The notes under the pieces were generated by a model, which made no database searches, was not told where the DNA came from, and was given only the letters and a program-made list of their open reading frames with translations. From Candidatus Omnitrophota bacterium (GTDB lineage: Bacteria > Omnitrophota > Gorgyraeia > Zapsychrales > JANLHA01), in NCBI GenBank assembly GCA_020632555.1, contig JACKFI010000005.1, positions 19,793 to 83,792 on the forward strand: a stretch of DNA of 64,000 nucleotides. Direction: 5' to 3'. Position 1 is the stretch's first letter; every line of letters starts with the position of its first letter. This document shows, in pieces, positions 457 to 32,518 of this stretch. Made by a program: the position numbers and the translations under genes.

Positions 457-1146
457 TTACGGAATTTCTAAAATCTTTTTAGCAAAAGGATAAATCGTCT
501 GCGCAAACAACCGCTGGCCTTCAGCGGAAGGATGCATGCCATCACCAGCGACCAAAGAGGAATCAAAACGCATTTGCTGTGAGACAGAATACACATCCAC
601 CAATGCAATCCCTTTTTGACGACAAACTTTGGCAATGATCTTATTAAATTTTGTAATGCCTTTGGCAATGTTCCGTCCCGGTGTAAAAACAGCCCCTTTG
701 GGCGTGGCCGAAAAATCCGGAATATTGACCACCAGAATTTTCTTTGCCGGCAATTCGGATAACATATCATCCAAAAGATCGGTAAAATTTGCACGAAATC
801 GCTCTGCTGTTGAATATTGCAGCCAATCATTGACGCCAATCATCAAGGTCGCAAAAGTTGGTTTAGCCTCGCGATAAACAGCAATCTCCCACTCTTGCGC
901 GTTCTGCGTTGTCCAACCATTACGGCTAGGATTAGCAACTAACTCAATCTTCAAACCATCTGCCTGCAACAGCCCCACCAAAACATTGGGCCACGCTTCT
1001 TGAGAACTAACACCGGTCCCAATCGAATAGGAATCCCCAAGCGCCACATAACGAATTTCTGCATTCGCGGCCACAGGAAAAATAAAAAATAAGAGAATGA
1101 TTAGCAAAAAACTCGAACCTACCCATTTGAAAGGCTTTTTATTCAT
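457..1146 (-). CDS. SGNH/GDSL-family hydrolase (esterase/lipase), secreted
   Basis: Signal peptide. SGNH blocks are present: VALGDSYSIG (block I Ser), GVNDW (block III) and DGMHPS (block V). Confidence 0.8.
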   Translation of the reverse strand: MNKKPFKWVGSSFLLIILLFFIFPVAANAEIRYVALGDSYSIGTGVSSQEAWPNVLVGLLQADGLKIELVANPSRNGWTTQNAQEWEIAVYREAKPTFATLMIGVNDWLQYSTAERFRANFTDLLDDMLSELPAKKILVVNIPDFSATPKGAVFTPGRNIAKGITKFNKIIAKVCRQKGIALVDVYSVSQQMRFDSSLVAGDGMHPSAEGQRLFAQTIYPFAKKILEIP

Positions 1147-1171
1147 AGACGTTCCATTTTAAAAGATTGTT

Positions 1172-2167
1172 TTAATTTTGTCCTGGTAAATTTTCTCTTT
1201 CCGGCAATATCATACGCTCGGCCAAAGTTTTGACAACCAACATTCGTCCCCGCAAACGCAAATGCTCATTAGGATAATACGGACCATCTCCATCTTCTGG
1301 CCAGCTAAAATCTTCACTGGGCAATGACCGCGATAAATCCCAGACTGGCACGTCCACCTCGTCCAAAGCAGAACGAATCACCTGGACATTTTCCTCGATA
1401 CGCAAAACGGAAGATACACCCAAATTTTTCTCAATGGTTTGCCAATCCACTGGCGTAATATAAAAAACCGGTTTAATCCCAGCAGATTTCAATAATTTAG
1501 CACTGCGTACCATCGACTGAACTTTACGATGTTGTTTTGACAAGGAATACATATAGCGAAACCGCAGTTTATTCTTCATCTTCTCTTGTGAATAAACTTG
1601 ATACGAAGCATTATCAAAATCTCTTACCTGACCAATAAGCTGAGAACCATCAAAAACATTGGTTTGTTCATAAGCAAAACGATTAATTCGCGGTTCAAAG
1701 ATTTTAAAAACCGCCAACGGCCGATAAAACTTCATCCAAAATGTATCTTTCATGGCCAGCGTCAATTTCTCTTTTTCAAATTGCCACAATGGCTGCTGAT
1801 CCCACTCCGGCGAAAAACACCGCAAATTGATCGGAATAATAACCACTTTAGGATGATAGCCCTTGCGAATCATATATTCAACATAGGCCTGATAGACATC
1901 CATCTGATACGACGCATGCGTAATTTTTGCAATACGCTCCGTTGGTAAAAGACGCTGCAATAACCCCGGCATACTCTCGCGATTGACATCACTATCAGGA
2001 GCCCAATTGATCGTGCTATCACCAAAATAAACAATATCCGCCTTGAGCTTCATAAAAACATCTAGGATTTTAATTTCATTGGGAATATCTTTAGAAACCG
2101 GCAGCATGATTTGCACCGAAAATATAAAGATTAAGAAGCAACCTAATTTTAAAAAGAAATTTTTCAT
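1172..2167 (-). CDS. AlgJ/PatB/DltD-like SGNH-type partner of the adjacent MBOAT (putative O-acyltransferase)
   Basis: N-terminal TM anchor and a 'YFGDSTI' GDS-type motif. It lies directly downstream of the MBOAT gene. The start is probably MKNFF at 2167, just after the MBOAT stop. Confidence 0.45.
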   Translation of the reverse strand: MKNFFLKLGCFLIFIFSVQIMLPVSKDIPNEIKILDVFMKLKADIVYFGDSTINWAPDSDVNRESMPGLLQRLLPTERIAKITHASYQMDVYQAYVEYMIRKGYHPKVVIIPINLRCFSPEWDQQPLWQFEKEKLTLAMKDTFWMKFYRPLAVFKIFEPRINRFAYEQTNVFDGSQLIGQVRDFDNASYQVYSQEKMKNKLRFRYMYSLSKQHRKVQSMVRSAKLLKSAGIKPVFYITPVDWQTIEKNLGVSSVLRIEENVQVIRSALDEVDVPVWDLSRSLPSEDFSWPEDGDGPYYPNEHLRLRGRMLVVKTLAERMILPERENLPGQN

Positions 2168-2168
2168 T

Positions 2169-3626
2169 TTAAAACTGAAAATAAATAAAAGGAATTGGGA
2201 CAGCAATCCCCCAATTCATAATTAATAAAGCTGCCCCCACATAAATCGCCCAACGCATAAACGCTGGCTTTTGGGCGAGAATCAGCTGGATACTGTCTTT
2301 TTCTTCAACGCAATTAACCCAAAGTAAGAAAATAACCAAAACAACTGATAATAGAAATTCTTTCAACGTTAAACCCAATGCCGCTGGCCCACTAACCCCA
2401 AAGTTTAAACCCTGACCCCAGCCAGAAAAAAGATGCCCAACAATATACCCCGCATCCGCAAGATGATTGGCACGAAAAAATATCCACGCGAAACAAACCA
2501 AAATAAAAGTAACGCCAATTTGCAATAATCGATAGCCGGCTGACAAACGCGAAAACCCTGTCAATTGAACAAACTTTTCCCGGGTTGAAGATGTTGCCCG
2601 CGAAAATAAATAATAAAAACCATGTAATGCCCCCCAAACCAAGAAAGTCCAATTTGCGCCATGCCACAATCCGCTGATAATAAATGTAATCAAAATATTC
2701 AACCGCCATTGCCACCGACTAACCCGATTCCCGCCCAAAGAAAAATACACATAATCCCGAAACCAAGTTGATAAAGAAATATGCCAGCGATGCCAAAAAT
2801 CCGCTATCGAAATTGCCAAATACGGTTGTTTAAAGTTCTTGACCAATTGAAAGCCCATCACCTGTGCGGCACCAATAGCAATATCCGAGTATCCAGAAAA
2901 ATCACAATAGATTTGAAAAGCGAAAAAAACCGTGGCTACAATCAAGCTCATCCCATTATATTCTGACGGATTGGCATAAACCTGATTGACCAAAATGGCC
3001 AAACGATCAGCAATCACCACCTTCTGAAAAAAACCCCACAGCATCAATTTCAATCCATTGCTGACACGCACAACATCAAAGCAATGTTTTTCAAAAAATT
3101 GCGGCATTAAATGTCTGGCGCGTTCAATCGGGCCAGCGACCAATTGCGGGAAAAACATAACGTACAAAGCATAAAACCCCAAATGTCTTTGGGCTTTTTG
3201 TGTGCCGCGATACACATCGATCACGTAGCCCAAACTTTGGAATGTGTGAAAAGATAAACCCAAAGGCAGGATCAATGACAAACTTTTAATCGAATATTGA
3301 TAACCAAAGTGATGAGCTAAAAATGCAGCTGACATATTAAAAAAATCAAAATATTTAAAAATAAAAAGAACCGTGCACGTCGAAACAATACTGGTCACGA
3401 CAATCATTTTGCGTTGCCACCCTTGGGTTTTCTCAATCAACAGCGCGGCTGTATAATCAATCATCACCAAAAGAAACATCACCAAAATATAAATGGGAAT
3501 AAACGCCATATAAAAGCAGCAGCTGGCCAGCAAAAGCCATGCCCACCGCCACTTGTGCGGCATCACGAAATAAATCGAAACCACGACGGGGAAAAACAAC
3601 AAGAACAAGAAAGAATTAAAAGTCAT
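2169..3626 (-). CDS. MBOAT-family membrane-bound O-acyltransferase (AlgI/PatA/DltB-like)
   Basis: Polytopic membrane protein. It has the MBOAT signatures 'HRWHISLSTWFRDYVYFSLGGNR' and 'LWHGANWTF'. Confidence 0.85.
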   Translation of the reverse strand: MTFNSFLFLLFFPVVVSIYFVMPHKWRWAWLLLASCCFYMAFIPIYILVMFLLVMIDYTAALLIEKTQGWQRKMIVVTSIVSTCTVLFIFKYFDFFNMSAAFLAHHFGYQYSIKSLSLILPLGLSFHTFQSLGYVIDVYRGTQKAQRHLGFYALYVMFFPQLVAGPIERARHLMPQFFEKHCFDVVRVSNGLKLMLWGFFQKVVIADRLAILVNQVYANPSEYNGMSLIVATVFFAFQIYCDFSGYSDIAIGAAQVMGFQLVKNFKQPYLAISIADFWHRWHISLSTWFRDYVYFSLGGNRVSRWQWRLNILITFIISGLWHGANWTFLVWGALHGFYYLFSRATSSTREKFVQLTGFSRLSAGYRLLQIGVTFILVCFAWIFFRANHLADAGYIVGHLFSGWGQGLNFGVSGPAALGLTLKEFLLSVVLVIFLLWVNCVEEKDSIQLILAQKPAFMRWAIYVGAALLIMNWGIAVPIPFIYFQF

Positions 3627-3657
3627 GCCACCCTAAAAACATCTGTATAAAACCCAG

Positions 3658-4230
3658 CTATTGTTTAACCTTCCATTCATATAAGCCAGTCGAATTATTT
3701 AAGACCTCAATCGGCGTGCCAGCAGGAGCATCAGACTGCAAACGCTGCGCGTATAACTGCTGAACGGCTTCAACAGAAGTGCCATTCTTTTGAGCCACCG
3801 CCTGATAAATCATCATCCGGTCACGATTCTCAGCATCAACCAAATCTTTCGAAGAAATATCTGCCGTCCGGATCTCCAGCAAACCCAATTTATTTTCACC
3901 AATACCGCCCTTAACCTGCAAAGCCACCAATTGCGTATAGCGATCTTTGCGTCGGAAAGCTGCTGCTTCAATATCAGGGCTTAAACCTTGCGCCGCATAA
4001 GCTTCCGCCACAAAAATATTCAAGAAATTGCGAGACCCTTGCCCTTTTGTATTTTCTGATGACCCGGTGACAATGCTTTCAATATCATCAATGTCATTCT
4101 TAATATGCTGATAAATATCCAAGCGCATGGAGATATCTACCTTAATCGGATCCTTCGGGGCCTGCACACTCACCCGAGCACATCCTAAAATTAACACCAA
4201 TGCCACAATAATTGTTAGTCCTGTTTTCAT
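3658..4230 (-). CDS. YnbE-like lipoprotein fused to a YdbL-like (DUF1318) domain
   Basis: Lipobox LILGC followed by 'ARVSVQAPKDPIKVDISMRLDIYQHI', which resembles YnbE (GCxP.v.v.aPkePI). The C-terminal half, 'GGIGENKLGLLEIR...AENRDRMMIYQAVAQKNGTSVEAVQQLYAQRL...YEWKVK', matches the YdbL/DUF1318 pattern. Confidence 0.65.
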   Translation of the reverse strand: MKTGLTIIVALVLILGCARVSVQAPKDPIKVDISMRLDIYQHIKNDIDDIESIVTGSSENTKGQGSRNFLNIFVAEAYAAQGLSPDIEAAAFRRKDRYTQLVALQVKGGIGENKLGLLEIRTADISSKDLVDAENRDRMMIYQAVAQKNGTSVEAVQQLYAQRLQSDAPAGTPIEVLNNSTGLYEWKVKQ

Positions 4231-4248
4231 AAACCATCCTTTGATAGA

Positions 4249-5361
4249 CTATTGATGAAGTATAATATTAAAATCTCTCTTGCCTTGTTCCCCATCCAAA
4301 TGAACATCAACTGCTAAACCCTGGTCCTGCAAAGACAATTTAGCAGACCCGGTATGATAATAATAATCTTGCACACTTTCAACCAAGCCATCGACAGATG
4401 TCCGATAAGGAATATGGTCAAAGAAACTGACATCCTTGATCATCAACCGCCCTCCAGCATTATCAACCATAAAATCACCATCTAAAATCTCGAGTTTAAC
4501 ACCTTGCCCTTGCAATTGAATATTTCCCTTAGCCTTGCCAATCATCATAAATTTATTATTCAACTCAAAACTCTCAACAAAACGACTAATATCTAAACCC
4601 CTAAATTGTAAACGCGCCTGATACGCCGGGACAACTGTCATACTGATAACAGCATCTCCACTGATGTTCCCGTCAAAAATATTGGCGGACACATCATCAA
4701 GAATCAAACTTTTATTCTCCAAACGGACCAAACTATTGATCTCTGTTACCGCAACTTTATCGTACAAAATCTTAACAGCAGTAAATTCCCCCCGGTTATT
4801 GCTGCGCGTTGCCCACAACAAAACATTTTCAAGATTCAATGCTTGATACTTCAAAGAACTAATATTCAGGTGCAAAGAATTAACTGTCTGCTGTATTAAA
4901 TCCACATCGGTCGAAAACTTACCAACAACTTGCAAGTCCTTAAACCGCACATTCAAGTCGCAATCCAAACATTCGATTCCCGAAAACATAACATTGGAGG
5001 GCTCTTGAGAGATATACATCTGCAGATAACTCACAAAATTCTGATTCGGGCGCTTAATACTGAGCGCCGCTGACTGCACGACGGCTTTAAATCTCTTAGC
5101 TTTTACTCGATCAAAAAAATCAAGGCGCAGCTGAATCTTTTGCGCCTTCAAAGAAAATAATTCTTTTTTCTCAACTTTAACACCCCGCAAACATATCTCA
5201 TTAAAACGTTTAAATTCAATATTCTCGATACCAACCACATCCAAAGAAAATCGCTTTTTTAGCACTTTCTGTGTCAAAAAAAGAACGGCCGGCTTAAAAG
5301 ACATCATCACTCCAGCCGCAAGAATAACACTTATAATGAAAAAGTAAATTCGACGCTTCAT
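4249..5361 (-). CDS. short YdbH-like (AsmA-like, DctA-YdbH domain) membrane-anchored protein
   Basis: N-terminal TM helix. Repetitive beta-rich sequence with 'IFDGNISGDAVISM...LQFRGLDISRFV...GKAKGNIQLQGQG', as in the YdbH C-terminal domain. It is syntenic with YnbE/YdbL as in the E. coli ydbH-ynbE-ydbL operon. Confidence 0.5.
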   Translation of the reverse strand: MKRRIYFFIISVILAAGVMMSFKPAVLFLTQKVLKKRFSLDVVGIENIEFKRFNEICLRGVKVEKKELFSLKAQKIQLRLDFFDRVKAKRFKAVVQSAALSIKRPNQNFVSYLQMYISQEPSNVMFSGIECLDCDLNVRFKDLQVVGKFSTDVDLIQQTVNSLHLNISSLKYQALNLENVLLWATRSNNRGEFTAVKILYDKVAVTEINSLVRLENKSLILDDVSANIFDGNISGDAVISMTVVPAYQARLQFRGLDISRFVESFELNNKFMMIGKAKGNIQLQGQGVKLEILDGDFMVDNAGGRLMIKDVSFFDHIPYRTSVDGLVESVQDYYYHTGSAKLSLQDQGLAVDVHLDGEQGKRDFNIILHQ

Positions 5362-5430
5362 AATATAAATTAAAAATTGACCTTACAATTTTTCTATTAT
5401 AAGCCCACAATGAAACTTTAGAAAAGGAAA

Positions 5431-6699
5431 TTACTTTTTAAAAATACTAAAGAAGGAATGATTAAATCGCGGCTCGATGCCCGGGTAGCATTGCTTAAAA
5501 TACTTTTGACCTGCAGAAGGAATATTTTGCCAGAGAGATTGCTCCTCACAAAGAAATTGACGAACAATATCAACATTCATTTTTAATCCACCATGCATAA
5601 CATCCACCGGTGTCGGTTCAGAGAAAAAGAAACTTTTTAAGCATTTGGAACAATTTTCTTCCGCCGCTATCATGTCCATGTGCAAAGGTAATGCAGGATT
5701 TCCGCGGGCACCCGGATAACTCTTAGCTGAGCCCATAGCCTTAAACATCAAATATTTGTATAACGTCTCATGCTTTGGATGCACGCCAATAATCAGGTCG
5801 GTAACACCAACACTACGAGCATATTCATACATAATTTTGAATAAACGAAAAAGACGCACTTGTTTATCAAGATTTGTTAATGAAAACAGCTTCTTTTTCT
5901 TTTGATCTGGAACAACTGCCAACAAACTCACCTCTGCGAGTTTTCGACCATGACCTCGCAAATGATTGAGTTCATTTTTAAACAAACTGTCCATCGGCAA
6001 ACCACAAGGAGAATCAACAACAACAGAAATAGTCCCAATCAATTGTCCCTTATCTTTCAAAGCAAAAGTCCGCGACTGCGGCAAAAGTGAATAATAATGA
6101 TAATGCATTTGACTCTCATTTGCGGAACAATATTTACGGGCGACATAACCGTTATAAACAATTCGATAACATGCCTTAAGTTCTTCTAGGGATTGAGCTG
6201 GAGCAGCAGTGATACCACGAGTCAATTGTAAACCAATTTTACAAAGTTTATTTGCAATCAAATAAACTAACTTTTCTTTATGCTGAACATTGCGCATACT
6301 TTTAAATGCAACGCCACATTCAACCGTGGTGCGATCTACCGTGTCTCCAGTAGCCGGTTTGACCCAAACGACGACACCTTTAATATCGATAGGACGAGGC
6401 GCATCTGGTAATTTCATCCGCAAATTGATTTCAGTTCCCGGAATCACACCCGGAGGCAAAGCCAAACGAATACCAGTTCCAGAATGATCTACGCTTCGAC
6501 CTAACAACCATTTAGACCAATTGCTTGTCAACCGATACCACACCGGCACACTGATTTCAACACGAGTTGATTGGCGCTGCTCATCAAAAACAGCCTGAGA
6601 AAATCCACCACGAAGATTTTCAATATTGTCTTCCAAAACACCCATGCCACTGGATCGGCTAAATGAAATATAACTCAAGAATTTTTGCAGAATTTTCAT
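5431..6699 (-). CDS. PilZ domain fused to an N-acyl amino acid synthase-like (FeeM/GNAT-like) domain, paralog 1
   Basis: PilZ motifs RQSTR (RxxxR) and DHSGTG (DxSxxG). The C-terminus, 'LAEVSLLAV...LFRLFKIMYEYARSVGVTDLIIGVHPKHETLYKYLMFKAMG..YPGARGNPALPLHMDM', resembles FeeM / PEP-CTERM-associated acyltransferases. Confidence 0.6.
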   Translation of the reverse strand: MKILQKFLSYISFSRSSGMGVLEDNIENLRGGFSQAVFDEQRQSTRVEISVPVWYRLTSNWSKWLLGRSVDHSGTGIRLALPPGVIPGTEINLRMKLPDAPRPIDIKGVVVWVKPATGDTVDRTTVECGVAFKSMRNVQHKEKLVYLIANKLCKIGLQLTRGITAAPAQSLEELKACYRIVYNGYVARKYCSANESQMHYHYYSLLPQSRTFALKDKGQLIGTISVVVDSPCGLPMDSLFKNELNHLRGHGRKLAEVSLLAVVPDQKKKKLFSLTNLDKQVRLFRLFKIMYEYARSVGVTDLIIGVHPKHETLYKYLMFKAMGSAKSYPGARGNPALPLHMDMIAAEENCSKCLKSFFFSEPTPVDVMHGGLKMNVDIVRQFLCEEQSLWQNIPSAGQKYFKQCYPGIEPRFNHSFFSIFKK

Positions 6700-6777
6700 G
6701 TATTACCCTATCAAAATTAAAAGTCCCATTCTTTAGCGTGCCATCACGTAAAAAATAGGACTTTAAGATCTCTCGAC

Positions 6778-6862
6778 CTTTGGCAACTGGCTGCCCTTTG
6801 CTGTGCATGAGGGCCCTATAGCTTTGTGTCCCATCCTTACGAATGGTTTACCTTTTTCCGAC
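6778..6862 (-). promoter_or_regulatory. c-di-GMP-I (GEMM-I)-like riboswitch aptamer, copy 1
   Basis: The minus strand reads AAAAAGGTAAACCATTCGTAAGGATGGGACACAAAGCTATAGGGCCCTCATGCACAGCAAAGGGCAGCCAGTTGCC. It has a GNRA-capped stem, the CAAAGC junction and a 3' GGCA..TGCC helix as in the Vc2 aptamer. It is about 80 nt upstream of the 5431..6699 start. Confidence 0.65.
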
Positions 6863-7011
6863 CGAACACTACGTTACAAAGTATAAACTGCCCCAGCTAA
6901 CAGCACAAGAGCAACACACCCAAAGTATTATTTTGTAAGTCCATGAACTACAACATATTAAAGCTAAGAAAACATAAATTTATCCATTAAAGAAACAAAA
7001 TCGGCAATTTC

Positions 7012-8286
7012 TCACCTTAAAACCCGTTTTCGAAGTTCCCACGAAGCCAAATCACCCGCAGAATAACACTGCTTAAAATATTCTCGCGCCTCAAGAGGCA
7101 TGGTTGACCAAAGCATCTGTTCTTCACAAAGAAATCGGCGAACAATTTCTTTACGCATAACTAACCCACTACTAATTATTTGCAGAGAAGGCCTTTCACT
7201 TATAAAAAAATCCTTCAAAGAATTCGAACATTCTCGCTCACCTTTTACAATATCCAAATGCATCGGTAAGGCTGGATTGCCACGAGCTTCCGGATAACTT
7301 TTGGGTGATCCCAGCGTATTAAACATCAAATATTTGTAAAGCGTTTCATGTTTAGGATGCACGCCAATAACCAAATCGGTAACCCCCGCAATATGCCGCG
7401 CGTATTCATAAACGATTTTAAAAAGCCTAAAAAGCTGAAGCTGTTTTTCAAAATTTGTCAGCGAAAACCTCTTTTTCTTCCGATCATGATGCACCATTGA
7501 CAACAAACTCACTTCCGCTAATTTGCGACCTTCACCACGAAGCCGCTGAATCTCGCGAGGGAAAAGATTGTCCATCGGCAAACCGCATGGCGAATCAACA
7601 ATGACAGAAATTGTCCCCAGCAATTTTTCCTTATCTTTCAAAACAAAAGCACGAGATTCTGGCAAAAAAGAAAAATAGTGATAATACATTTGACTAGGAT
7701 TAGGCGAACAATATCCTCTGGCTAAATAACCTTGATAAACAGTGTGATAACACGCTTTCAGGTCCAATAAAGTCTGTACTGGCGCCGCTGTTAAATGCTG
7801 CGTTGATTTCAAACCCAAATGGCAAAGTTTATTAGCAATCAAATAAACAAGCTTTTGCCGATGGGTATCTTTTTGAATGGTATCAAAAACAACACCACAT
7901 TCGACAACTCTGTGCTGAGCATGCCGATGGGACGTTTGTGCCACCCAAACAACAACGCCCTTCATATTAATCGGATGATCAACTTCCGGCAATTTGATAT
8001 TCATTTCAATGTCCGTGCCTGGGCGCAACGCAGAAAGCAAAACCAGCCGAATTCCACTGCTGGAATAATCTTGGCTGGTCGTAAAATACCATTTCGCCAA
8101 TGGCCCTTTAACACGATAAGCCACAGGAATGCTTAAAGATAAACGCGTCGCCTGACGCATTTCCACAGAGTCCTTAGAAACTGGTTTTAATGCTTCATTC
8201 TTACAATGCTGTTCCAAAACTTGCGCACTTTCAACATGCTTACCATTAATAAAAAACAGGATAAGGCTTCCAATTGATTTAATCAT
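7012..8286 (-). CDS. PilZ domain fused to an N-acyl amino acid synthase-like (FeeM/GNAT-like) domain, paralog 2
   Basis: PilZ motifs RQATR and DYSSSG. The C-terminal domain is collinear with paralog 1, with long identical peptide runs such as GTISV.VDSPCGLPMD and VTDL.IGVHPKHETLYKYLMF. Confidence 0.6.
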   Translation of the reverse strand: MIKSIGSLILFFINGKHVESAQVLEQHCKNEALKPVSKDSVEMRQATRLSLSIPVAYRVKGPLAKWYFTTSQDYSSSGIRLVLLSALRPGTDIEMNIKLPEVDHPINMKGVVVWVAQTSHRHAQHRVVECGVVFDTIQKDTHRQKLVYLIANKLCHLGLKSTQHLTAAPVQTLLDLKACYHTVYQGYLARGYCSPNPSQMYYHYFSFLPESRAFVLKDKEKLLGTISVIVDSPCGLPMDNLFPREIQRLRGEGRKLAEVSLLSMVHHDRKKKRFSLTNFEKQLQLFRLFKIVYEYARHIAGVTDLVIGVHPKHETLYKYLMFNTLGSPKSYPEARGNPALPMHLDIVKGERECSNSLKDFFISERPSLQIISSGLVMRKEIVRRFLCEEQMLWSTMPLEAREYFKQCYSAGDLASWELRKRVLR

Positions 8287-8302
8287 AGCAACACTCCAAA
8301 AT

Positions 8303-8342
8303 AAAAAAACCTATCCTTTAAATTACACACAAAAGATAGGCC
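8303..8342 (-). terminator. intrinsic-terminator-like hairpin between riboswitch copy 2 and its gene (candidate expression platform)
   Basis: The minus strand reads GGCCTATCTTTTGTGTGTAATTTAAAGGATAGGTTTTTTTATTTT. This is a CCTATC/GATAGG stem followed by a T7 run, then the RBS GGAG and the ATG. Confidence 0.5.
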
Positions 8343-8356
8343 CACAGAACATTACT

Positions 8357-8437
8357 TTTCGGCAACTGGCTGCCCCTGCTGTGCATACGGGCCCTATAGC
8401 TTTGTGTCCCACCCTTACGAATGGTTTACCTTTTCTC
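8357..8437 (-). promoter_or_regulatory. c-di-GMP-I (GEMM-I)-like riboswitch aptamer, copy 2
   Basis: The minus strand reads GAAAAGGTAAACCATTCGTAAGGGTGGGACACAAAGCTATAGGGCCCGTATGCACAGCAGGGGCAGCCAGTTGCCGAAAAG. It is nearly identical to copy 1, while the flanking DNA differs. Confidence 0.7.
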
Positions 8438-8536
8438 TATGTTTATTATTTCATTACTCTGAGAGTGTAAAACACCAATGATGAATCGGCAAGAGCAAAG
8501 CTGAAGAATTATTTAAATTAGCAGCAAGAAAAAAAC

Positions 8537-10123
8537 TTAAAACTTATGAATGAGTTCAGTATAGTAACGGCTTTTATTGCGAAAATACCCAAAATCCCCA
8601 GAAGAATCACCTGAAAAAATATCCGCACCAACACAAACCTGCCAACTTTTCATAAAGCTATATTTGACCTTTGGCTGGTAAAGAAAATCCGGCGCATTGA
8701 CGCCATAAATCATTAAAAACTCTGTTTGCAGCTTTCGATTAAGAAAATCACGACTTATCCTTAACGAAAACGCATTATTAAACTTATCCTTATTAATCAT
8801 GCTGTCATTGTAACTAAAAATCGCATCCTGAATAAACTGAGCATTAACATCCAATTTATTAAGGAACGTATAGTCAAGACTTAACAAATATACCAAATGA
8901 TCACTTTGCACAATACCATTCTGATCCACAGGATTAGATACCGGGAAAAAATCATCTGGGATATAAACAAAATCTCCTTTAAAAACAATATCTTTGATTT
9001 CTTTAGAAACTGTTGCGCCATAAGTATCGAGTCTCTTATACTGGGGATCAAAATCATAGCTGCCGCCATTGATCGCACGATACAAAACCGGCGACTGTGT
9101 CCAACTATGCAAATAAAAAGCTCCCATATCAAAACCTTCCCATAAATAATTTAATCTCATCCCTAGCTTGCTGTTTTCAAAACCATCTTTGGGATCTTTA
9201 GCGTCATGATAAGTCACCGGAGCATTGCCGGGCACAGGCAAACTATAAGCAAATTCCGAACCCGTAACACCTAATTTATTAAATTCAATACCTGGCAAAA
9301 CAATAAATTCAGAATGAAAATTGTTCTTTGTATATTCAAGATTTGTTCCCCATTCCGGAATTCGTATGCTATCAAAATCAGGCAAAATAAACTCCCGCAA
9401 ATCTTTAGCATTAACCACATCCGCTACAAAAAGCCCAACAGCCTCTCCCCAAACAATTTGCTGTTTTCCAACTCTAAAATCCCACGGCCCCAAAGAATAA
9501 TCCAAATATGTATCCCTAAGTTCCACTTCAGCTCGCTGATCGGACGTCGCACTGTCAGAATAATAATGGCCAACATCATACGCCGCATCATAATGTGCTC
9601 TGCCACTAATCCGATAGCGCAAGGCTGATGAAAATTCACCACGCGCAGTTAAAATCAATTGATTCTTAATTTTGGTAAACTCTGCTGGACTATAAATATG
9701 ATGAGCAACCTCCGAACGGGTAATCCCTTGAATAACCATCGTCGGCTTGATTAAAACATCTTTATTCGAATGCTCTGTGGCCGGCAATAAACCCAGGACT
9801 TCTGCATCTTCTCTCATCTGCGCCCGTTCAAAACTTTCCAATTTATCCTTAATCTGCTGATCTCGTAAATCCAAAGAGGGTTCACCTTTTTCTTCAGGCA
9901 CAACCTGATCCTTAACGCGTTCAAGACGGTCTAAAACATTATTGATTTCACTATCTCGCGGCTGTTGACTCGAAGATTCTTCAGCCGAAAAAAATTCCAA
10001 TGTTTGGGCAATCACTTGCTCGCGCGGTAAACTGTCAAACGTTTTCACATCCAACTGCGCCCAAGCCGCCGCATTGGACAGAACTATAAAAAGAATAAAA
10101 AGTGTCCAACAATATCGCATCAA
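8537..10123 (-). CDS. outer-membrane beta-barrel protein (DUF1302-like), partner of the LolA-like protein
   Basis: Signal peptide ending AAWAQ. Alternating beta-strand-like sequence rich in Y/G/D. C-terminal aromatic residue (...ELIHKF). It overlaps the upstream LolA-like gene by 4 nt. Confidence 0.55.
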   Translation of the reverse strand: MMRYCWTLFILFIVLSNAAAWAQLDVKTFDSLPREQVIAQTLEFFSAEESSSQQPRDSEINNVLDRLERVKDQVVPEEKGEPSLDLRDQQIKDKLESFERAQMREDAEVLGLLPATEHSNKDVLIKPTMVIQGITRSEVAHHIYSPAEFTKIKNQLILTARGEFSSALRYRISGRAHYDAAYDVGHYYSDSATSDQRAEVELRDTYLDYSLGPWDFRVGKQQIVWGEAVGLFVADVVNAKDLREFILPDFDSIRIPEWGTNLEYTKNNFHSEFIVLPGIEFNKLGVTGSEFAYSLPVPGNAPVTYHDAKDPKDGFENSKLGMRLNYLWEGFDMGAFYLHSWTQSPVLYRAINGGSYDFDPQYKRLDTYGATVSKEIKDIVFKGDFVYIPDDFFPVSNPVDQNGIVQSDHLVYLLSLDYTFLNKLDVNAQFIQDAIFSYNDSMINKDKFNNAFSLRISRDFLNRKLQTEFLMIYGVNAPDFLYQPKVKYSFMKSWQVCVGADIFSGDSSGDFGYFRNKSRYYTELIHKF

Positions 10124-10902
10124 TAAACCATTTTTTTTAAATATTCCCGGGTAAAATATTTGTTCTCGATTCGCCCAACTTCAATCTTGTCATATTCAAT
10201 AACCGAATACTGTCCATCAATAACCGCGTCACTTAAAACCAATCGCGATGGCCGCATCTTGCCCGCCAACATCTTATAATTTTCATATGAACAAATTTTT
10301 AGAAAACGTCCACTGACACCATAAAATTCTGCTTTTAGAGGCCAAAAGTTCTTTTGCTCTACCCAGAGGATAACCTTACCATAAGTAACCTTGCTGCTTT
10401 TAGCCTTTAATTCCAAAACATAATATTTCTTTTCATTACTAGATTCCTCACGCAAAAATTGTCCATCATAATCAGCGAAAAAATTAATCCGCGCGATATC
10501 TCCGTTAGAAATATCTCCCAAAAATCGCTCTTGAGAGGCAACATGCAAAGGCTGGGAAACTTCAGGGAAAAAAAACCAATAATCATTGTCGCGCATCAAA
10601 ATCACCCGACCACGTTCATTAGCCGGCTGCAATGTCCGCACAATGGTTTTTTCGCGACCTTGCATACGAATATCATAAAGAGCTGTTTGTGGCGGATGAT
10701 TGCTTTTAAAACTACTCACTCGAGCTACCAATGAAAAATCTTCATTGGGACTGCGAATTTCATCGATCTTTTGTAGAATTCCACTGGGATTAATATTGGA
10801 ACTAGCTCCAACCATACCGACAAAGAAGAAACTTTGAAAGACAATTGCGAAAAGGACATACCTACCATTTTTCATAATGGACTCCCATCTCAAAAGATTC
10901 AC
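10120..10902 (-). CDS. outer-membrane lipoprotein-sorting (LolA-like fold) protein
   Basis: Signal peptide. Size and motifs ('RVILMRDNDYWFFFPEVSQPL', 'YYVLELKAKSSKVTYGKVILWVEQKNFWPLKAEFY') are typical of the LolA_like family, which is found next to MacB-type ABC transporters. Confidence 0.65.
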   Translation of the reverse strand: MNLLRWESIMKNGRYVLFAIVFQSFFFVGMVGASSNINPSGILQKIDEIRSPNEDFSLVARVSSFKSNHPPQTALYDIRMQGREKTIVRTLQPANERGRVILMRDNDYWFFFPEVSQPLHVASQERFLGDISNGDIARINFFADYDGQFLREESSNEKKYYVLELKAKSSKVTYGKVILWVEQKNFWPLKAEFYGVSGRFLKICSYENYKMLAGKMRPSRLVLSDAVIDGQYSVIEYDKIEVGRIENKYFTREYLKKMVY

Positions 10903-10908
10903 AAACTT

Positions 10909-12177
10909 TTATCTATACCGCAATGCTTCCGTAATCTCAAGACGTGAGGCTTTATAAGCAGGGACCAGCGCCGAAACACCCCCAACAAACACTGATAAAA
11001 AAAATGTTGAAATAACAATCGATGGAACAATCACAGGTGTAGACAACCAGGAAAATGTTGTTCCCGGCGGTGGCGGCATCACAATACCAATAGCCGCAAC
11101 CAAACTAACAATGATTATCCCCATCAAAACACCTATCGCTCCACCAATGCACCCTAAGAGTAGTCCTTCAAAAAGAAAAAGTTTCATCACGCCTCGCCGC
11201 CGTATTCCCAGCGCCATAATCGTGCCAATTTCACTAATTCGTTCCATCACCGACATATTCATCGTATTAAAAATACCCAAAACAACTACAATCCCAATCA
11301 CAATGCGCATCACTAAATAAAACATATTAAATAGCTCTGCTGTCTTATTGTAAAAGTCAGCCATATCTTCCCAACGCCGAAGTTCTAAATTTAGCTTTTT
11401 ATCTCTAATTATCACCTGCAAAGATTTAAAAACCTTATCTGTATCTTCTGTCTGGTGAAGTTTAACCACCAACACTTGCACGGCCTGAGTATCCAGCAAA
11501 CTTTGTGCTGTTTGAAGAGGTAATCGCAAGGAAATGTCATCAAAATCCTTTTGCGTCGTTCGAAATGCACCTTTAACATTAAGATCCAGCGCATTCGTCG
11601 CCCCATGCACCGTACTGGTCAAAAGAGTCACTCGATGATCTACCTGCGCGCGCATAGTCTCGGCTAACCCTCGACCTAAAACAACTTGATAATCATCATC
11701 TCCAACAAGACTTGTCCCAAAAACTGTAACTGGCAACCCCAAATTTTTAGATTTCATAAACTGCCGCAAATCCTGCGTTTCTTCAATGGTAGCTTGTCTT
11801 TCATTTTGCGGTTCAATACCTTGACCGATAAAAGAAATTGTATTGCTCCCCGTGCTCATCAGTCCCTGAAACTGTAATCGCGCACTAACATACTCCACTT
11901 CAGGAAAATCACTGACCAACTCCTTGATTTCTTGATAGTTATCAATCAAATACCGATAAGCCTCAATTCTCCCATGCTCATTAAAACCTCGCCGATAAAT
12001 CTGAATATGACCCGACAGAGATTCAATAAAGCCTTCACGCATTTTCCAAAAAATATCTTGAAAATAACCGCCAATAAAAATCAAAGCCACACAACCAAAA
12101 ACAATTGTCGATAATGTAATAACAGATCGTGCTTTGTGCCGAAAAATATTTCTCAAAGCTATTTTTAATGTCATCAT
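10909..12177 (-). CDS. ABC transporter permease, FtsX/MacB/LolE-type, copy 1
   Basis: N-terminal TM helix, a large periplasmic domain and a C-terminal FtsX 3-TM bundle ending ...AYKASRLEITEALRYR. The likely start is the ATG at 12177, which forms an ATGA overlap with the ATPase stop. Confidence 0.85.
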   Translation of the reverse strand: MMTLKIALRNIFRHKARSVITLSTIVFGCVALIFIGGYFQDIFWKMREGFIESLSGHIQIYRRGFNEHGRIEAYRYLIDNYQEIKELVSDFPEVEYVSARLQFQGLMSTGSNTISFIGQGIEPQNERQATIEETQDLRQFMKSKNLGLPVTVFGTSLVGDDDYQVVLGRGLAETMRAQVDHRVTLLTSTVHGATNALDLNVKGAFRTTQKDFDDISLRLPLQTAQSLLDTQAVQVLVVKLHQTEDTDKVFKSLQVIIRDKKLNLELRRWEDMADFYNKTAELFNMFYLVMRIVIGIVVVLGIFNTMNMSVMERISEIGTIMALGIRRRGVMKLFLFEGLLLGCIGGAIGVLMGIIIVSLVAAIGIVMPPPPGTTFSWLSTPVIVPSIVISTFFLSVFVGGVSALVPAYKASRLEITEALRYR

Positions 12178-12848
12178 GCGGACACAATCTCCCCATCCCA
12201 AATTCGCACCACCCGATCCGCCCGGTCAATCACTTTTTGATCATGCGTTGAAAAAATAAATGTTGTCTTCTTTTGCCGGTTGATCTCTCTCATCAAATCG
12301 ACAATTTCTTCCCCCGTTTTATGATCCAAATTTGCCGTCGGTTCATCAGCCAAAATCAATAAAGGTTCGCGTACTATCGCGCGCGCAATAGCCACTCTCT
12401 GCTGTTGCCCGCCGCTCATTTCCAAAGGCTTATGCTTAGCCAAATGCAACAAACCCATCATGTCTAAGGCCGCCTCTGCTTCTTTTCGACGCTGAGCTGC
12501 AGTCATTTTTTTTAAAAATAAAGCATACTCAACATTTTCCACCGCCGTTAAAACAGGGAATAAATTAAAATTCTGAAAAACAAAACTGATCTTTTCCGCA
12601 CGCAGATCAGATAATTGATCATTGGAAAGGCTGGCTGTTGGAATATTATCAAACAAAACTTCACCAGTGGTTGGTTTGTCGATACAGCCCATAATATTTA
12701 AAAGGGTTGTTTTGCCGCTACCAGATGGACCGGCGAGCGCTAAAAACTCACCAGCAGCAACAGTCAGGTTAACATTCTTTAATGCTTCAACACTAATCGA
12801 GTTAAGCTGATACGTTCGAGATACATTCGAGATTTGAATAAGACTCAT
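12174..12848 (-). CDS. ABC transporter ATP-binding protein (LolD/MacB-type), copy 1
   Basis: Walker A GPSGSGKTT, signature LSGGQQQRVAIARA (here MSGGQQQRVAIARA) and Walker B LILADEPT. Confidence 0.9.
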   Translation of the reverse strand: MSLIQISNVSRTYQLNSISVEALKNVNLTVAAGEFLALAGPSGSGKTTLLNIMGCIDKPTTGEVLFDNIPTASLSNDQLSDLRAEKISFVFQNFNLFPVLTAVENVEYALFLKKMTAAQRRKEAEAALDMMGLLHLAKHKPLEMSGGQQQRVAIARAIVREPLLILADEPTANLDHKTGEEIVDLMREINRQKKTTFIFSTHDQKVIDRADRVVRIWDGEIVSA

Positions 12849-12862
12849 ACATTCCCCATATT

Positions 12863-14131: not shown

Positions 14132-14802
14132 GCGGACACAATCTCCCCATCCCAAATTCGCACCACCCGATCCGCCCGGTCAATCACTTTTTGATCATGC
14201 GTTGAAAAAATAAATGTCGTCTTATTCTGCCGGTTGCTTGCTTTCATCAAATCAACAATCTCTTCGCCCGTCTTATGATCCAAATTCGCTGTCGGTTCAT
14301 CAGCCAAAATCAATAAAGGTTCACGTACTATCGCGCGCGCAATGGCCACTCTCTGCTGCTGCCCGCCGCTCATCTCTAAAGGTTTGTGCCCAGCCAAATG
14401 CAATAAACCCATCAGGTCCAATGCTGCTTCTGCTTTCTTGCGACGCTGATCTGCAGTCATTTTTTTTAAAAATAAAGCATACTCAACATTTTCCACCGCC
14501 GTTAAAACAGGAAATAAATTGAAATTCTGAAAAACAAAACTAATTTTCTCCGCACGCAGATCAGATAATTGATCACTGGAAAGACTAGCTGTTTGAGTAT
14601 TATCAAAGAGAACTTCACCAGTGGTTGGTTTATCGATACAGCCCATAATATTTAAAAGGGTTGTTTTGCCGCTACCGGATGGGCCTGCCAATGCCAAAAA
14701 CTCACCGGCAGCAACAGCCAAATCGACGTTCTTCAAAGCCGTAACGCTAATAGAATTGAGTTGATACTTACGTGAAACCTTTGAGATTTGAACAAGTGAC
14801 AT
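14128..14802 (-). CDS. ABC transporter ATP-binding protein (LolD/MacB-type), copy 2
   Basis: Same motifs as copy 1. It differs from copy 1 at only a handful of residues. Confidence 0.9.
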   Translation of the reverse strand: MSLVQISKVSRKYQLNSISVTALKNVDLAVAAGEFLALAGPSGSGKTTLLNIMGCIDKPTTGEVLFDNTQTASLSSDQLSDLRAEKISFVFQNFNLFPVLTAVENVEYALFLKKMTADQRRKKAEAALDLMGLLHLAGHKPLEMSGGQQQRVAIARAIVREPLLILADEPTANLDHKTGEEIVDLMKASNRQNKTTFIFSTHDQKVIDRADRVVRIWDGEIVSA

Positions 14803-20898: not shown

Positions 20899-20919
20899 AA
20901 AGCATTTTTTGTCCTGTCC
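20899..20919. repeat. 21-bp direct repeat flanking the ISNCY element (right copy)
   Basis: AAAGCATTTTTTGTCCTGTCC is identical to 19459..19479. Confidence 0.85.
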
Positions 20920-20999
20920 TGCAGGGAATAATCGACACTATTCCATATTTTTCAATATTCTATTTAAACTGCAGCTTGACTTTCGGGCAAGTAAATTTG

Positions 21000-21666: not shown

Positions 21667-21815
21667 CTAACCTCTTAACATAACAACTTCAGAGCATATC
21701 AATAAAAAAGGTTTTGAAAAGGTTCTGGAACATTTCCAAAAGTGCCAAGCTCAGTTTCCCAGCTTTAACATATTCGATGGGCACCGTTTGGGCACTAGTT
21801 GTTCCATCCCTACAC

Positions 21816-22685: not shown

Positions 22686-22695
22686 ATTGAGAAAT

Positions 22696-23262: not shown

Positions 23263-23289
23263 AGTTAACAGGCCCTTCCTACATCTAAT

Positions 23290-23935: not shown

Positions 23936-23984
23936 AGCTAAGTATAACCTTTGACCGGAGGAAGGTCAATTTCTTTGCCTTTTA

Positions 23985-32503: not shown

Positions 32504-32518
32504 TTAAATTTCCTTAAC

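Follow-up and report, generated by a model that had tools for sequence, protein, structure and literature searches.

Two paralogous genes on the minus strand of an Omnitrophota contig each encode a PilZ domain fused to a FeeM-type N-acyl amino acid synthase, and each is preceded by a class-I c-di-GMP (GEMM-I) aptamer. The reading that we consider probable, albeit not certain, is that these genes form two independent units, each consisting of a promoter-like site, a class-I aptamer, an intrinsic terminator, and the PilZ::FeeM gene, in which c-di-GMP switches expression OFF. Both units lie in the 64,000-nucleotide stretch of DNA that was analyzed here (the window).

A cmscan search of the whole window at the Rfam gathering thresholds returned exactly two riboswitch matches, both on the minus strand, where a sequence-only reading of this DNA had claimed two class-I c-di-GMP aptamers and named RF01051 as the family. 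Copy 2 (8358-8440, minus strand) matched the RF01051 model over its full length with 61.3 bits (gathering score 35; E=1.5e-9), while the best match of copy 1 (6778-6861, minus strand) was RF03167 with 61.7 bits (gathering score 59). Both copies have the GNRA-capped stem of that reading, i.e., a P2 with the sequence CCAUUC-GUAA-GGAUGG in copy 1 and CCAUUC-GUAA-GGGUGG in copy 2, and they scored 108.3 and 90.6 bits, respectively, against a covariance model (R1) built in this analysis. They share with RF01051 members such as Vc2 of Vibrio cholerae the fold of two hairpins and a junction, the P2 GNRA loop, and the core GG(N)AAACC...GGGAC(N)CAAA...GCC. All 18 leaders from the window and the homologous loci contain GG(U)AAACC...GGGACACAAA...GCC, giving a G before P2, an A after P2, and the C in GCC, positions that we take to correspond to G20, A47, and C92 of Vc2. 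In 16 aligned leaders, the P2 and P3 helices have standard pairs in 100% of cells; P3 includes one compensatory pair, with sequence variation in its distal part.

We considered and rejected copy 1 as a member of the RF03167 "GGC" variant: it has an A rather than a G at the position that defines this variant and, because the A after P2 is kept, its top match to RF03167 is a scoring tie. That the aptamers sense another cyclic dinucleotide, either 3'3'-cGAMP (GEMM-Ib) or the ligand of the GGC variant, is very improbable. This possibility draws on the RF03167 scores, i.e., the top match of copy 1 and the 55.3 bits of copy 2; however, the defining G of RF03167 is replaced by A in both copies and in all 18 homologous leaders, a mismatch that leaves this column empty in the match lines of the copies, and most orthologous aptamers match RF01051 best, with scores of 58-70 bits (those in L002-L006 reach 59-70 bits, for the most part against RF01051). 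Moreover, the G that, on the presumed mapping, is changed to A in cGAMP switches is kept in both copies, as had been proposed in favor of c-di-GMP over cGAMP, and the regulated protein carries PilZ, a c-di-GMP receptor domain. With canonical G, A, and C at the ligand positions, neither copy is thus a GGC variant or cGAMP-type, and we conclude that both are genuine GEMM-I members with c-di-GMP-type ligand positions.

The two aptamer cores are identical at 72 of 78 positions (92%), while the flanks are only 56-58% identical (60/108 in the 100 nt upstream and 46/79 in the stretches from aptamer to ATG), in line with the earlier description of near-identical blocks amid dissimilar intergenic DNA. 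The two coding sequences are 65% identical at the DNA level and the proteins 52%. From the 3' end of the aptamer to the ATG, the distance is 78 nt for copy 1 and 71 nt for copy 2, close to the ~80 nt upstream of 422/424-aa paralogs given previously. By eye, we recognized a promoter-like site in front of each unit, which is weak evidence: TTGCCG-17 nt-TACACT (8464-8492, minus strand) ends ~24 nt upstream of aptamer copy 2, and TTGTGC-17 nt-TATACT (6880-6908, minus strand) has the same position relative to copy 1. A TATACT-like box occurs again upstream of several homologous leaders; the unit 2 site scores below the threshold of a promoter consensus scan. If real, the site in front of unit 1 would make each gene a transcription unit of its own.

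The expression platform of copy 2 (8298-8346, minus strand) is a terminator hairpin, CCUAUCUUU...AAAGGAUAGG, with U7 behind it and UGUGGGCCUAUCUUUUGUGU as its 5' arm (8327-8346), matching the hairpin and T7 tract previously interpreted as a termination platform. In the platform of copy 1 (6713-6780, minus strand), a small GNRA-capped hairpin, AAGGUC-GAGA-GAUCUU (6765-6780), is followed by the long terminator hairpin AAAGUCCUAUUUUUU...AAAGAAUGGGACUUU and UAAUUUU (6713-6764). The description of this platform as a weaker equivalent of the other holds for the U tract (UUUUAAUUUU), which is interrupted and counts against a terminator-based OFF model; the hairpin itself, however, is longer and more stable than that of copy 2. 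Neither hairpin was reported by a simple terminator scan with a loop limit of 3-8 nt, possibly because the loops exceed this limit. Based on folding, a hairpin and a U run are present in each of the 18 cases in which the leader beyond the aptamer is available. Across the leaders, pairing in the terminator helix amounts to 98%, with four pairs changed on both sides, and the hairpin between aptamer and terminator is 83% paired with two compensatory pairs.

The direction of the switch was not addressed in the sequence-only reading, and the anatomy found here points to OFF. In copy 2, the 5' arm of the terminator can alternatively pair with ACACAAAG and GGGCCCGUA of the aptamer (junction and P3 5' strand), and this pairing is present in the nascent-transcript MFE with a gain of -13.0 kcal/mol (shuffled-arm control, -8.6 +/- 2.5 kcal/mol; 0/30 shuffles reach the observed value). 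In copy 1, the 5' arm GUCCUAUUUUU is complementary to AAGGAUGGGAC of the aptamer (duplex, -14.2 kcal/mol), and the anti-terminator is likewise part of the nascent-transcript MFE. Duplexes between the aptamer segment and the terminator 5' arm range from -10 to -22 kcal/mol in 18/18 leaders, and in 14/18 the anti-terminator forms part of the MFE structure when the transcript ends before the terminator 3' arm, with a mean difference to the P2 state of -4.2 kcal/mol. Nascent-transcript folds of 15/18 leaders have the 5' arm base-paired with the aptamer, and the energy gains are larger than with shuffled arms, of which 0-3 in 30 do as well. In the leader alignment, 96% of the cells of the 11-bp anti-terminator helix are paired, with only one pair changed on both sides among leaders that all come from one clade; the helix is backed by conservation and energy, not by covariation. 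The common register of this helix is not used by window copy 2.

From these secondary-structure energetics, we predict that both elements are OFF switches in which c-di-GMP causes termination. During transcription of the leader, the terminator 5' arm (GUCCUAUUCUU) would invade the aptamer and pair with the P2 3' strand and the junction (AAGRAUGGGAC) or, in window copy 2, with the junction and the P3 5' strand instead. At low c-di-GMP, this anti-terminator would allow the RNA polymerase to read through; bound c-di-GMP would lock the aptamer and leave the 5' arm to pair with its 3' arm (AAGAAUAGGAC), which nearly repeats the sequence of the aptamer segment; transcription would then stop ahead of the gene. 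The stable GNRA hairpin P2 is an element that the anti-terminator must displace, and this counts against the OFF model.

In the full-length RNA, aptamer plus terminator is favored by ~3.7 kcal/mol and is the MFE structure in 15/18 leaders even without a ligand term; therefore, read-through depends on folding kinetics. The same result leaves room for termination as the default state, i.e., for ON switches made of the same parts in which c-di-GMP promotes read-through, as in Bc2 of Bacillus thuringiensis. In support of such a mechanism, the small hairpin between aptamer and terminator (AAGGUC-GAGA-GAUCUU) overlaps a possible P1 3' strand, GGUCGA, for which UCGAUC or UCGGUC in the 5' flank is a potential partner, and ligand-dependent P1 formation could rearrange the downstream RNA. 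We nevertheless regard ON switching as unlikely. The terminator does not overlap the aptamer, and the ligand-bound, folded aptamer is thus fully compatible with it; we found no conserved sequence that is released by the bound aptamer and able to disrupt the lower stem of the terminator, and in the upper stem the segment freed by P1, GAUCUUUA, can pair with only ~6 A/U-rich bases. Only one strong competitor of the terminator is conserved, namely the aptamer core, which is the signature of an OFF design. In Clostridioides difficile, all seven functional class-I switches are terminator-type OFF switches, the logic predicted for the window; however, class-I ON switches exist, and the direction varies by species and cannot be extrapolated (PMC6366702). 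In the C. difficile OFF switch Cd1, an intrinsic terminator follows the aptamer, as in the window. Compared with known class-I switches, those in the window differ in host phylum (Omnitrophota), in the regulated gene (a PilZ-fused N-acyl amino acid synthase), in an anti-terminator that uses the P2 3' strand and junction rather than P1 alone, and in the back-to-back arrangement of two units on paralogous genes.

The regulated open reading frames encode proteins of 422 aa (paralog 1; 5431-6699, minus strand) and 424 aa (paralog 2; 7012-8286, minus strand, with a GGAG ribosome-binding site 9 nt before the ATG). Domain, profile, and structure matches agree that, as proposed earlier, a fusion of PilZ with a FeeM-type synthase lies behind each aptamer. 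For paralogs 1 and 2, respectively, PilZ (PF07238; gathering score 22.5) scored 46.5 and 46.3 bits over residues ~40-150, and FeeM (PF21926; gathering score 27) scored 135.7 and 131.9 bits over residues ~176-345; a helical C-terminal extension of 80 aa follows. The previously claimed likeness to FeeM is borne out, while the likeness to PEP-CTERM-associated N-acyl amino acid synthases is not: at E<=1, NCBIfam gave only PRK14852 and the PilZ-like TIGR02266, both far below the cut-offs, and one GlmU match (paralog 2 only, E=0.015). The AF2 model of paralog 1 (pLDDT 78.7, pTM 0.74) aligns in Foldseek to FeeM (2G0B) with a target-normalized TM of 0.82-0.87 and 28-30% identity, and the FeeM profile-to-sequence match has E=3e-23. 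The FeeM segment KLAEV, which we take to hold the catalytic Glu, aligns with E256, which is invariant in the family and in paralog 2 lies in an LAEVS motif. The AEVS motif at E256 is also common to the segment around Glu103 of Nas354, as given by a mutagenesis primer (PMC4897644). Computation thus shows, at the level of the model, a FeeM-fold acyltransferase domain with a putative catalytic Glu.

Both proteins also contain, as judged by sequence, the intact pair of c-di-GMP-binding PilZ motifs noted before, RQSTR and DHSGTG in paralog 1 and RQATR and DYSSSG in paralog 2 (RxxxR and DxSxxG). It could be argued that the RNA elements are genuine but PilZ is a non-binding adaptor of the Xanthomonas type, in which case dual control is illusory and the RNA layer alone senses c-di-GMP. 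RxxxR is lost in two family members (P0039 and P0053), sequence matches to the PilZ part in the PDB are limited to PilZ proteins of type IV fimbriae assembly (E ~1e-3), and the 43 N-terminal residues directly before RxxxR are modeled at pLDDT <50. We consider this quite unlikely because, among 26 family members, at least 90% retain R42, R46, and D71, S73 and G76 do not vary, and both window paralogs have all five residues. Moreover, the motifs are spaced by 24 residues, as is canonical, PilZ reaches twice its gathering score in Pfam, and the PilZ part of the model aligns over 104 columns with BcsA chain 4hg6, which binds c-di-GMP. The PilZ domain of the enzyme itself would read the same messenger posttranslationally.

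The arrangement recurs in relatives. In 13 other loci (among them L002-L006, L010-L013, L062, L063, and L065; L001 is the window's own contig) of related metagenome-assembled genomes, the identified ones being Omnitrophota, we found 16 further aptamers upstream of PilZ-FeeM genes, and no further aptamer elsewhere in the ~290 kb searched; relatives at <=47% identity lack the arrangement. Nor does the fusion stand alone: ~50 representative clusters (50% identity) match its profile over most of its length, and those members that are named come from Candidatus Omnitrophica (Omnitrophota) assemblies.

Downstream of paralog 1, after a 69-nt gap in which no terminator was found, co-oriented genes (457-5361, minus strand) are possibly cotranscribed with it. 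By Pfam, they encode an AsmA/YdbH-like protein (4249-5361), a DUF1318/YdbL-like protein (3658-4230), an MBOAT protein (2169-3626), a 344-aa protein with a weak SGNH-like match (1172-2206), and a GDSL lipase/acylhydrolase (457-1146), all on the minus strand; this order is the same in L001, L010, and L012 and partly so in L062 and L065. The co-oriented upstream genes (8537-14802, minus strand; Pfam) encode a DUF1302 outer-membrane-like protein, a LolA_like/TP_0789-like protein, and two pairs of MacB/FtsX permease and ABC ATPase; this module adjoins PilZ-FeeM genes in L010-L012, L063, and L065 and, even without a riboswitch, in relatives at ~40% identity (L007 and L009). A crude six-frame motif search found no GGDEF motif in the window. 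Judging from FeeM and Nas354, the synthases likely use acyl-ACP to make a long-chain N-acyl amino acid, and the MacB-type ABC, LolA-like, DUF1302, YdbH/AsmA-like, YdbL-like, MBOAT, and GDSL proteins suggest further acylation of the lipid and its delivery to the outer membrane or cell surface.

The sequence-only reading held that no PilZ-N-acyl amino acid synthase fusion had been characterized; this is incorrect. Nas354 and Nas343 from a slaughterhouse biofilm metagenome are such fusions, were characterized as N-acyltyrosine synthases, and have been proposed to be regulated by c-di-GMP via PilZ; in Escherichia coli, Nas354 makes an N-acyltyrosine biosurfactant, and the E103A variant is inactive (Thies et al. 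2016, PMC4897644). They share with the window proteins the catalytic Glu in an (I/L)AEVS motif; however, no riboswitch was reported for them, and both have the synthase N-terminal and PilZ C-terminal (1-200 and 279-394, respectively, in Nas354), whereas PilZ comes first in the window. This reversed order argues that the two types of fusion are probably independent. FeeM is a stand-alone 198-aa enzyme of a biosynthetic cluster, lacking the sensor domain and C-terminal extension of the window proteins. Second-messenger sensors on GNAT-superfamily acyltransferases are also found in NasP, which is activated by cAMP as cited in PMC4897644, and in Rv0998 (4avc), a Foldseek match of the paralog 1 model; these use cAMP and a cNMP-binding domain, while the window proteins would use c-di-GMP and PilZ in addition to an RNA-level sensor.

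BcsA (cellulose) and Alg44 (alginate) have PilZ on or beside a biosynthetic enzyme for a surface or extracellular product and are gated allosterically by c-di-GMP, a design that the window proteins would share. BcsA and Alg44, however, are membrane glycosyltransferase systems activated by c-di-GMP, while the window enzyme is a soluble-type acyltransferase and c-di-GMP is predicted to repress transcription of its gene. If the elements were ON switches, RNA-level induction and PilZ-level activation would act in the same direction at high c-di-GMP. [quoted passage not shown] Altogether, one signal molecule probably controls both the amount and the activity of the enzyme.

Using cmscan on the whole window with the Rfam gathering thresholds, we found four matches; two of them, both on the minus strand, are riboswitch aptamers. 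Copy 1 of the c-di-GMP-I aptamer (6778-6861, minus strand) matches RF03167 (c-di-GMP-I-GGC) with 61.7 bits (gathering score 59), and copy 2 (8358-8440, minus strand) matches RF01051 with 61.3 bits (gathering score 35). The two models belong to the same clan (CL00126), and the RF01051 match of copy 1 is masked by clan competition, with RF03167 as the clan's best match; a permissive rescan of 5300-8700 added only a match of copy 2 to RF03167 (55.3 bits). By score, copy 2 is a member of RF01051, and the orthologous aptamers reach 58-70 bits. The aptamer cores of the two copies are identical in 72 of 78 positions, compared with 60 of 108 in the 100 nt upstream of the two aptamers, 46 of 79 in the stretches from aptamer to ATG, and 65% in the coding sequences. 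These data confirm the observation, made earlier from the sequence only, of two nearly identical blocks in dissimilar surroundings, and the cmscan matches agree with their assignment to the GEMM-I riboswitches. The broader interpretation in the sequence-only reading, i.e., that each riboswitch precedes a gene for a PilZ domain fused to a synthase of N-acyl amino acids (NAS), is supported, with corrections needed concerning the precedent for such fusions and the likeness to PEP-CTERM-associated enzymes.

P2 in these aptamers is the stem CCAUUC-GUAA-GGRUGG, and the GNRA-capped stem that had been proposed is therefore present, with GUAA as its tetraloop. In the alignment of 16 leaders (the RNA from aptamer to ATG), P2 and P3 form standard pairs in 100% of cells and P3 has one compensatory pair (C-G to U-A), while distal P3 varies freely between loci in sequence and length. 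Thus, both the GNRA-capped P2 and P3 are kept as helices, as expected for RF01051. The nucleotides at the ligand positions are the G directly 5' of P2, the A directly 3' of P2, and the GCC at the 3' end, and these G, A, and C are retained in both copies and in 18 of 18 leaders, again as expected for RF01051. We take the G 5' of P2 to be equivalent to G20 of the Vibrio cholerae Vc2 aptamer, with A47 and C92 mapping accordingly and G20 replaced by A in the cGAMP-sensing GEMM-Ib aptamers; this mapping leans on the Vc2 structure and on the Rfam consensus alignment. On this mapping, the earlier claim that the G20 equivalent is retained holds for both copies and extends to all 18 leaders.

The alternative that copy 1 is a GGC variant, as its best match would have it, depends on a single nucleotide. 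The RF03167 consensus differs from that of RF01051 just after P2 (GACGC-G-AA versus GACGC-A-AA). At this position, the window copies read GGGACAC-A-AAG and the homologous leaders all read CACAAA; the G that defines RF03167 is A in both copies, and the corresponding column of the match line is empty. Because the defining G is A in every copy, the variant label is ruled out for copy 1. This label is a scoring tie within one clan; copy 1 exceeds the RF03167 threshold on account of the common core and the modelled outer helix rather than the variant nucleotide. Instead, the retention of the G 5' of P2, the A 3' of P2, and the GCC places the window aptamers in the canonical c-di-GMP type, with c-di-GMP as the predicted ligand. 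Two homologous loci have aptamers with an extra ∼80-90 nt inside P3 that folds as additional hairpins (L010, 5770-5944; L013, 1274-1455); these extended aptamers barely pass RF01051 (36 and 35.3 bits) and look like a branched-P3 variant of GEMM-I.

All 18 leaders contain a hairpin of the form GUCCUAUUCUU...AAGAAUAGGA(C), with a U run behind it, located ∼20-30 nt past the aptamer and 20-40 nt before the ATG. The terminator-type platform that had been described after copy 2, with a weaker equivalent after copy 1, is a general feature of these leaders. In 16 leaders, the terminator helix is 98% paired, with four pairs changed on both sides. The leader terminators are absent from a simple terminator scan of the window, possibly because their loops exceed the 3-8 nt limit of that scan; accordingly, we judged them by folding and by conservation across the 18 leaders. 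The terminator lies apart from the aptamer and can thus form while the aptamer stays folded. The sequence of its 3' arm nearly repeats AAGAAUGGGAC, the part of the aptamer that spans the loop of P2, its 3' strand, and the junction; for this reason, pairing between the 5' arm and the aptamer is possible. The duplex between the aptamer segment and the terminator 5' arm has an energy of −10 to −22 kcal/mol in 18 of 18 leaders, and this anti-terminator helix of 11 bp is paired in 96% of cells, with only one pair changed on both sides. In transcripts ending just before the terminator 3' arm, the anti-terminator is part of the minimum free energy structure in 14 of 18 leaders (15 of 18 if the 5' arm may pair anywhere in the aptamer), and it differs from the P2 state by −4.2 kcal/mol on average. 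In the full-length leader RNA, the aptamer together with the terminator is favored by ∼3.7 kcal/mol. The energy gains of the 5' arm were equalled by only 0-3 of 30 shuffled arms.

In copy 2, the register differs: UGUGGGCCUAUCUUUUGUGU, the arm of this copy, has as its partners ACACAAAG and GGGCCCGUA, which belong to the junction and the 5' strand of P3; despite the other register, the switching logic is the same. We also considered CAAAGCUAUAGGGC paired with the terminator 5' arm as a general anti-terminator. Only window copy 2 uses this pairing as its operative alternative, and it was rejected as the general form because elsewhere the partner of the 5' arm is the 3' strand of P2. Leaders of the copy 1 type have, in addition, a small GNRA-capped hairpin between aptamer and terminator (AAGGUC-GAGA-GAUCUU), which is 83% paired with two compensatory pairs and whose 5' strand overlaps the possible 3' strand of P1. 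The only role that we assign to this hairpin is to shorten the loop closed by the anti-terminator.

An aptamer-compatible terminator and an anti-terminator that uses aptamer nucleotides are the components of an OFF-type platform, in which ligand binding would lead to termination. The opposite arrangement, in which P1 and the small hairpin toggle to turn the gene on, would require a pairing that opens the terminator; a search for such a pairing yielded none that is conserved and could disrupt the lower terminator stem. In Clostridioides difficile, all seven functional class-I switches terminate on ligand binding; however, Bc2 is an ON switch, and a review cautions against carrying direction across species (PMC6366702). 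Provided that the leaders are functional switches, we consider that they probably work in the OFF direction, as indicated by conservation and energetics rather than by covariation. A promoter-like site precedes each aptamer (TTGTGC or TTGCCG, a 17-nt spacer, and TATACT or TACACT); these sites were found by eye and are below the scan threshold.

The two PilZ-FeeM paralogs are encoded on the minus strand at 5431-6699 (paralog 1, 422 aa) and 7012-8286 (paralog 2, 424 aa), and the 3' ends of the aptamers lie 78 and 71 nt, respectively, before the start codons, in agreement with the open reading frames and upstream elements described from the sequence. Based on Pfam, paralogs 1 and 2 match PilZ (PF07238) at residues ∼40-150 with 46.5 and 46.3 bits, i.e., about twice the gathering score of 22.5, and FeeM (PF21926) at residues ∼176-345 with 135.7 and 131.9 bits (gathering score 27). 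Both PilZ ligand motifs that had been read from the sequence, RxxxR and DxSxxG, are present, as R42-QST-R46 and D71-HS-GT-G76 in paralog 1 and as RQATR and DYSSSG in paralog 2. In a 26-member family alignment, R42, R46, and D71 are kept in at least 90% of members, while S73 and G76 are invariant. By score and by the RxxxR and (D/N)xSxxG motifs, these are PilZ domains of the c-di-GMP-binding type, and c-di-GMP binding is predicted.

The putative catalytic residue E256 (in RKLAEVSLLA) is invariant among the 26 family members. The KLAEV of paralog 1 aligns to the KLAEV of FeeM, a stand-alone NAS (PDB 2G0B; profile E=3e-23), and the AEVS motif is common to E256 and the Glu103 segment of Nas354, a characterised NAS-PilZ fusion (read from a mutagenesis primer, PMC4897644). 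An AlphaFold2 model (pLDDT 78.7, pTM 0.74) has four parts, i.e., a beta-rich N-terminal domain (residues 53-133), a linking helix, an alpha/beta domain resembling FeeM, and a helical extension of ∼80 aa. Foldseek aligned the N-terminal domain with BcsA (chain 4hg6) over 104 columns and matched 2G0B with a target-normalised TM of 0.82-0.87, with LasI-type AHL synthases and further GNATs next in line. By its score, its FeeM fold, and its catalytic Glu, the C-terminal domain is that of a FeeM-type NAS, and for both paralogs we predict the corresponding activity, the joining of an acyl group from acyl-ACP to an amino acid. The C terminus had been likened to both FeeM and the PEP-CTERM-associated NAS. 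The first likeness is borne out by PF21926 and 2G0B, whereas the second is not. Among the NCBIfam matches at E≤1, neither paralog has an exosortase-associated NAS model (TIGR03694-type); the matches are to PRK14852 (71-74 bits, cut-off 1337), TIGR02266 (far below its cut-off), and, for paralog 2, one to GlmU (E=0.015). No exosortase was seen among the annotated neighbor genes. We therefore reject the PEP-CTERM-associated identity, which has no NCBIfam support.

A word-indexed protein search identified 70 relatives, of which ∼60 have PilZ and FeeM and all named ones are from Candidatus Omnitrophica assemblies. Omnitrophota are known mainly from metagenome-assembled genomes (MAGs). An exhaustive profile search gave 375 representatives at E≤1e-30; ∼50 match over most of the profile length, and the remaining ones are mostly stand-alone FeeM proteins with an extension (270-300 aa). 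The window's own protein is also present on a Logan contig (run SRR12358676). Among the homologous loci collected for comparison, two aptamers precede two tandem paralogs in each of L002-L006, which are Omnitrophota MAGs, some labelled "uncultured Planctomycetales", and one aptamer is found in each of L010, L011, L012, L013, L062, L063, and L065 (L063 being cut by the contig end). No riboswitch precedes the PilZ-FeeM genes at ≤47% identity (L007, L009, L014-L031, L034, L064), none is found in the distant FeeM-only loci (L032-L061), and our own covariance model detected no aptamer away from these leaders in ∼290 kb. Hence, the association between riboswitch and gene is conserved within one clade. 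Where a single aptamer accompanies tandem paralogs, it always precedes the second gene, which adjoins the YdbH-like gene (L010, L012, L062, L063). A riboswitch on both paralogs is seen only in the sub-clade containing the window and L002-L006. The conserved flanks of the "a" leaders differ from those of the "b" leaders, so the gain of the second leader predates the divergence of these genomes.

Other family members vary in architecture. Among them are a fusion of PilZ, FeeM, and ThiF (680 aa), a 510-aa protein in which FeeM follows two PilZ domains, and a 585-aa double FeeM (proteins P0082, P0077, and P0135). In L007, L008, and L011, the cluster that contains the PilZ-FeeM gene also has a ThiF gene, and ThiF hints at an adenylation step in the pathway. 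The PilZ RxxxR motif is lost in P0039 (locus L009) and P0053; the P0039 locus is without a riboswitch and has a second, FeeM-only gene in divergent orientation, and this branch may have lost control by c-di-GMP at the RNA level as well as at the protein level.

Downstream of paralog 1 (457-5361, minus strand), the window encodes an AsmA/YdbH-like protein, a DUF1318 (YdbL-like) protein, an MBOAT protein, an unknown protein, and a GDSL hydrolase. Upstream of the paralogs (8537-14802, minus strand) are genes for a DUF1302 protein, a LolA-like/TP_0789-like protein, and two pairs of MacB-type permease and ABC ATPase. Both modules recur beside PilZ-FeeM genes elsewhere (L007, L009-L012, L063, L065), and the LolA-like/DUF1302/MacB module accompanies even relatives of ∼40% identity without riboswitch. 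Taken together, the two modules resemble a system dedicated to modifying and exporting lipids. We infer from their recurrence that the acyl amino acid belongs to the envelope or surface lipids and that its further O-acylation and export may follow. A crude motif search found no GGDEF motif in the window, a result that says nothing of the rest of the genome.

Elsewhere in the window, a 1121-aa open reading frame (15973-19338, minus strand) without a Pfam match at E≤0.01 lies between the ABC/MacB module and transposase-like genes and adjoins a weak GH26-like open reading frame (14886-15887). The transposase/integrase-like open reading frames lie within 19529-25313 (minus strand), at 19529-20812 (HTH and rve_3) and 24018-25313 (DDE_Tnp_1), and between these two is an open reading frame (21816-22685) with a match to the B-box-type zinc finger, a mainly eukaryotic domain. 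The window also has a tRNA-Leu gene (anticodon CAG; 32421-32504, plus strand) and a tmRNA gene (28567-28961, minus strand; RF00023, 202.9 bits). Based on ARAGORN, the tmRNA tag has 25 residues (AENNDALIAQAEAIANGAEQPVLVG), is long, and ends in LVG, while such tags usually end in LAA.

The statement in the sequence-only reading that no characterised PilZ-NAS fusion is known is incorrect, as Nas354 and Nas343 precede the proteins described here. These enzymes are from a slaughterhouse biofilm metagenome, N-acyltyrosine production was shown in E. coli, and the E103A mutant is inactive; Thies et al. (2016) modelled an N-terminal NAS and a C-terminal PilZ domain and proposed control by c-di-GMP (PMC4897644). 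The window proteins share with Nas354 and Nas343 the domain pair and the proposed logic. In contrast, Nas354 has the NAS at residues 1-200, an 80-aa linker, and PilZ at 279-394, while the window proteins have PilZ N-terminally and FeeM C-terminally, i.e., they do not have the architecture with NAS first and PilZ last. Based on this opposite domain order, the PilZ-FeeM family is probably a fusion independent of Nas354/Nas343. In a literature search for PilZ and FeeM, Thies et al. (PMC4897644) was the only relevant report found, and a search for riboswitches joined with a synthase of N-acyl amino acids returned no report. While the single elements are of known kinds and represent no new class, the presence on one enzyme gene of two sensors for one messenger, an RNA and a protein domain, including its tandem duplication inside a cluster of putative lipid-transport genes, appears to be unreported.

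We speculate on how the two levels could work together. Upon a rise in c-di-GMP, the riboswitch would stop new synthesis, while PilZ would activate the enzyme already present; these opposite signs would constitute an incoherent feed-forward loop, and the N-acyl amino acid lipid would be made in a pulse. O-acylation of this lipid would fall to the MBOAT and GDSL proteins, and the YdbH/YdbL-like and MacB/LolA-like/DUF1302 systems would carry it to the outer membrane. That opposite-sign two-level control, O-acylation, and transport together make up a new c-di-GMP-dependent pathway for envelope lipid remodelling in uncultured Omnitrophota is a proposal that we regard as unlikely.

Riboswitches for c-di-GMP and PilZ domains are each well known; both on one gene would make for compact two-tier sensing of one messenger, with a slow transcriptional and a fast allosteric tier, and this arrangement is readily tested in vitro. 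It ties c-di-GMP to N-acyl amino acid synthesis. If the OFF direction is true, a surfactant-like lipid would be made in the low-c-di-GMP (motile or dispersing) state, in agreement with the general c-di-GMP paradigm. The physiological role of N-acyl amino acid lipids and biosurfactants is still unclear (PMC4897644), and the conserved lipid-transport neighbors offer a concrete hypothesis for the role of these lipids in Omnitrophota.
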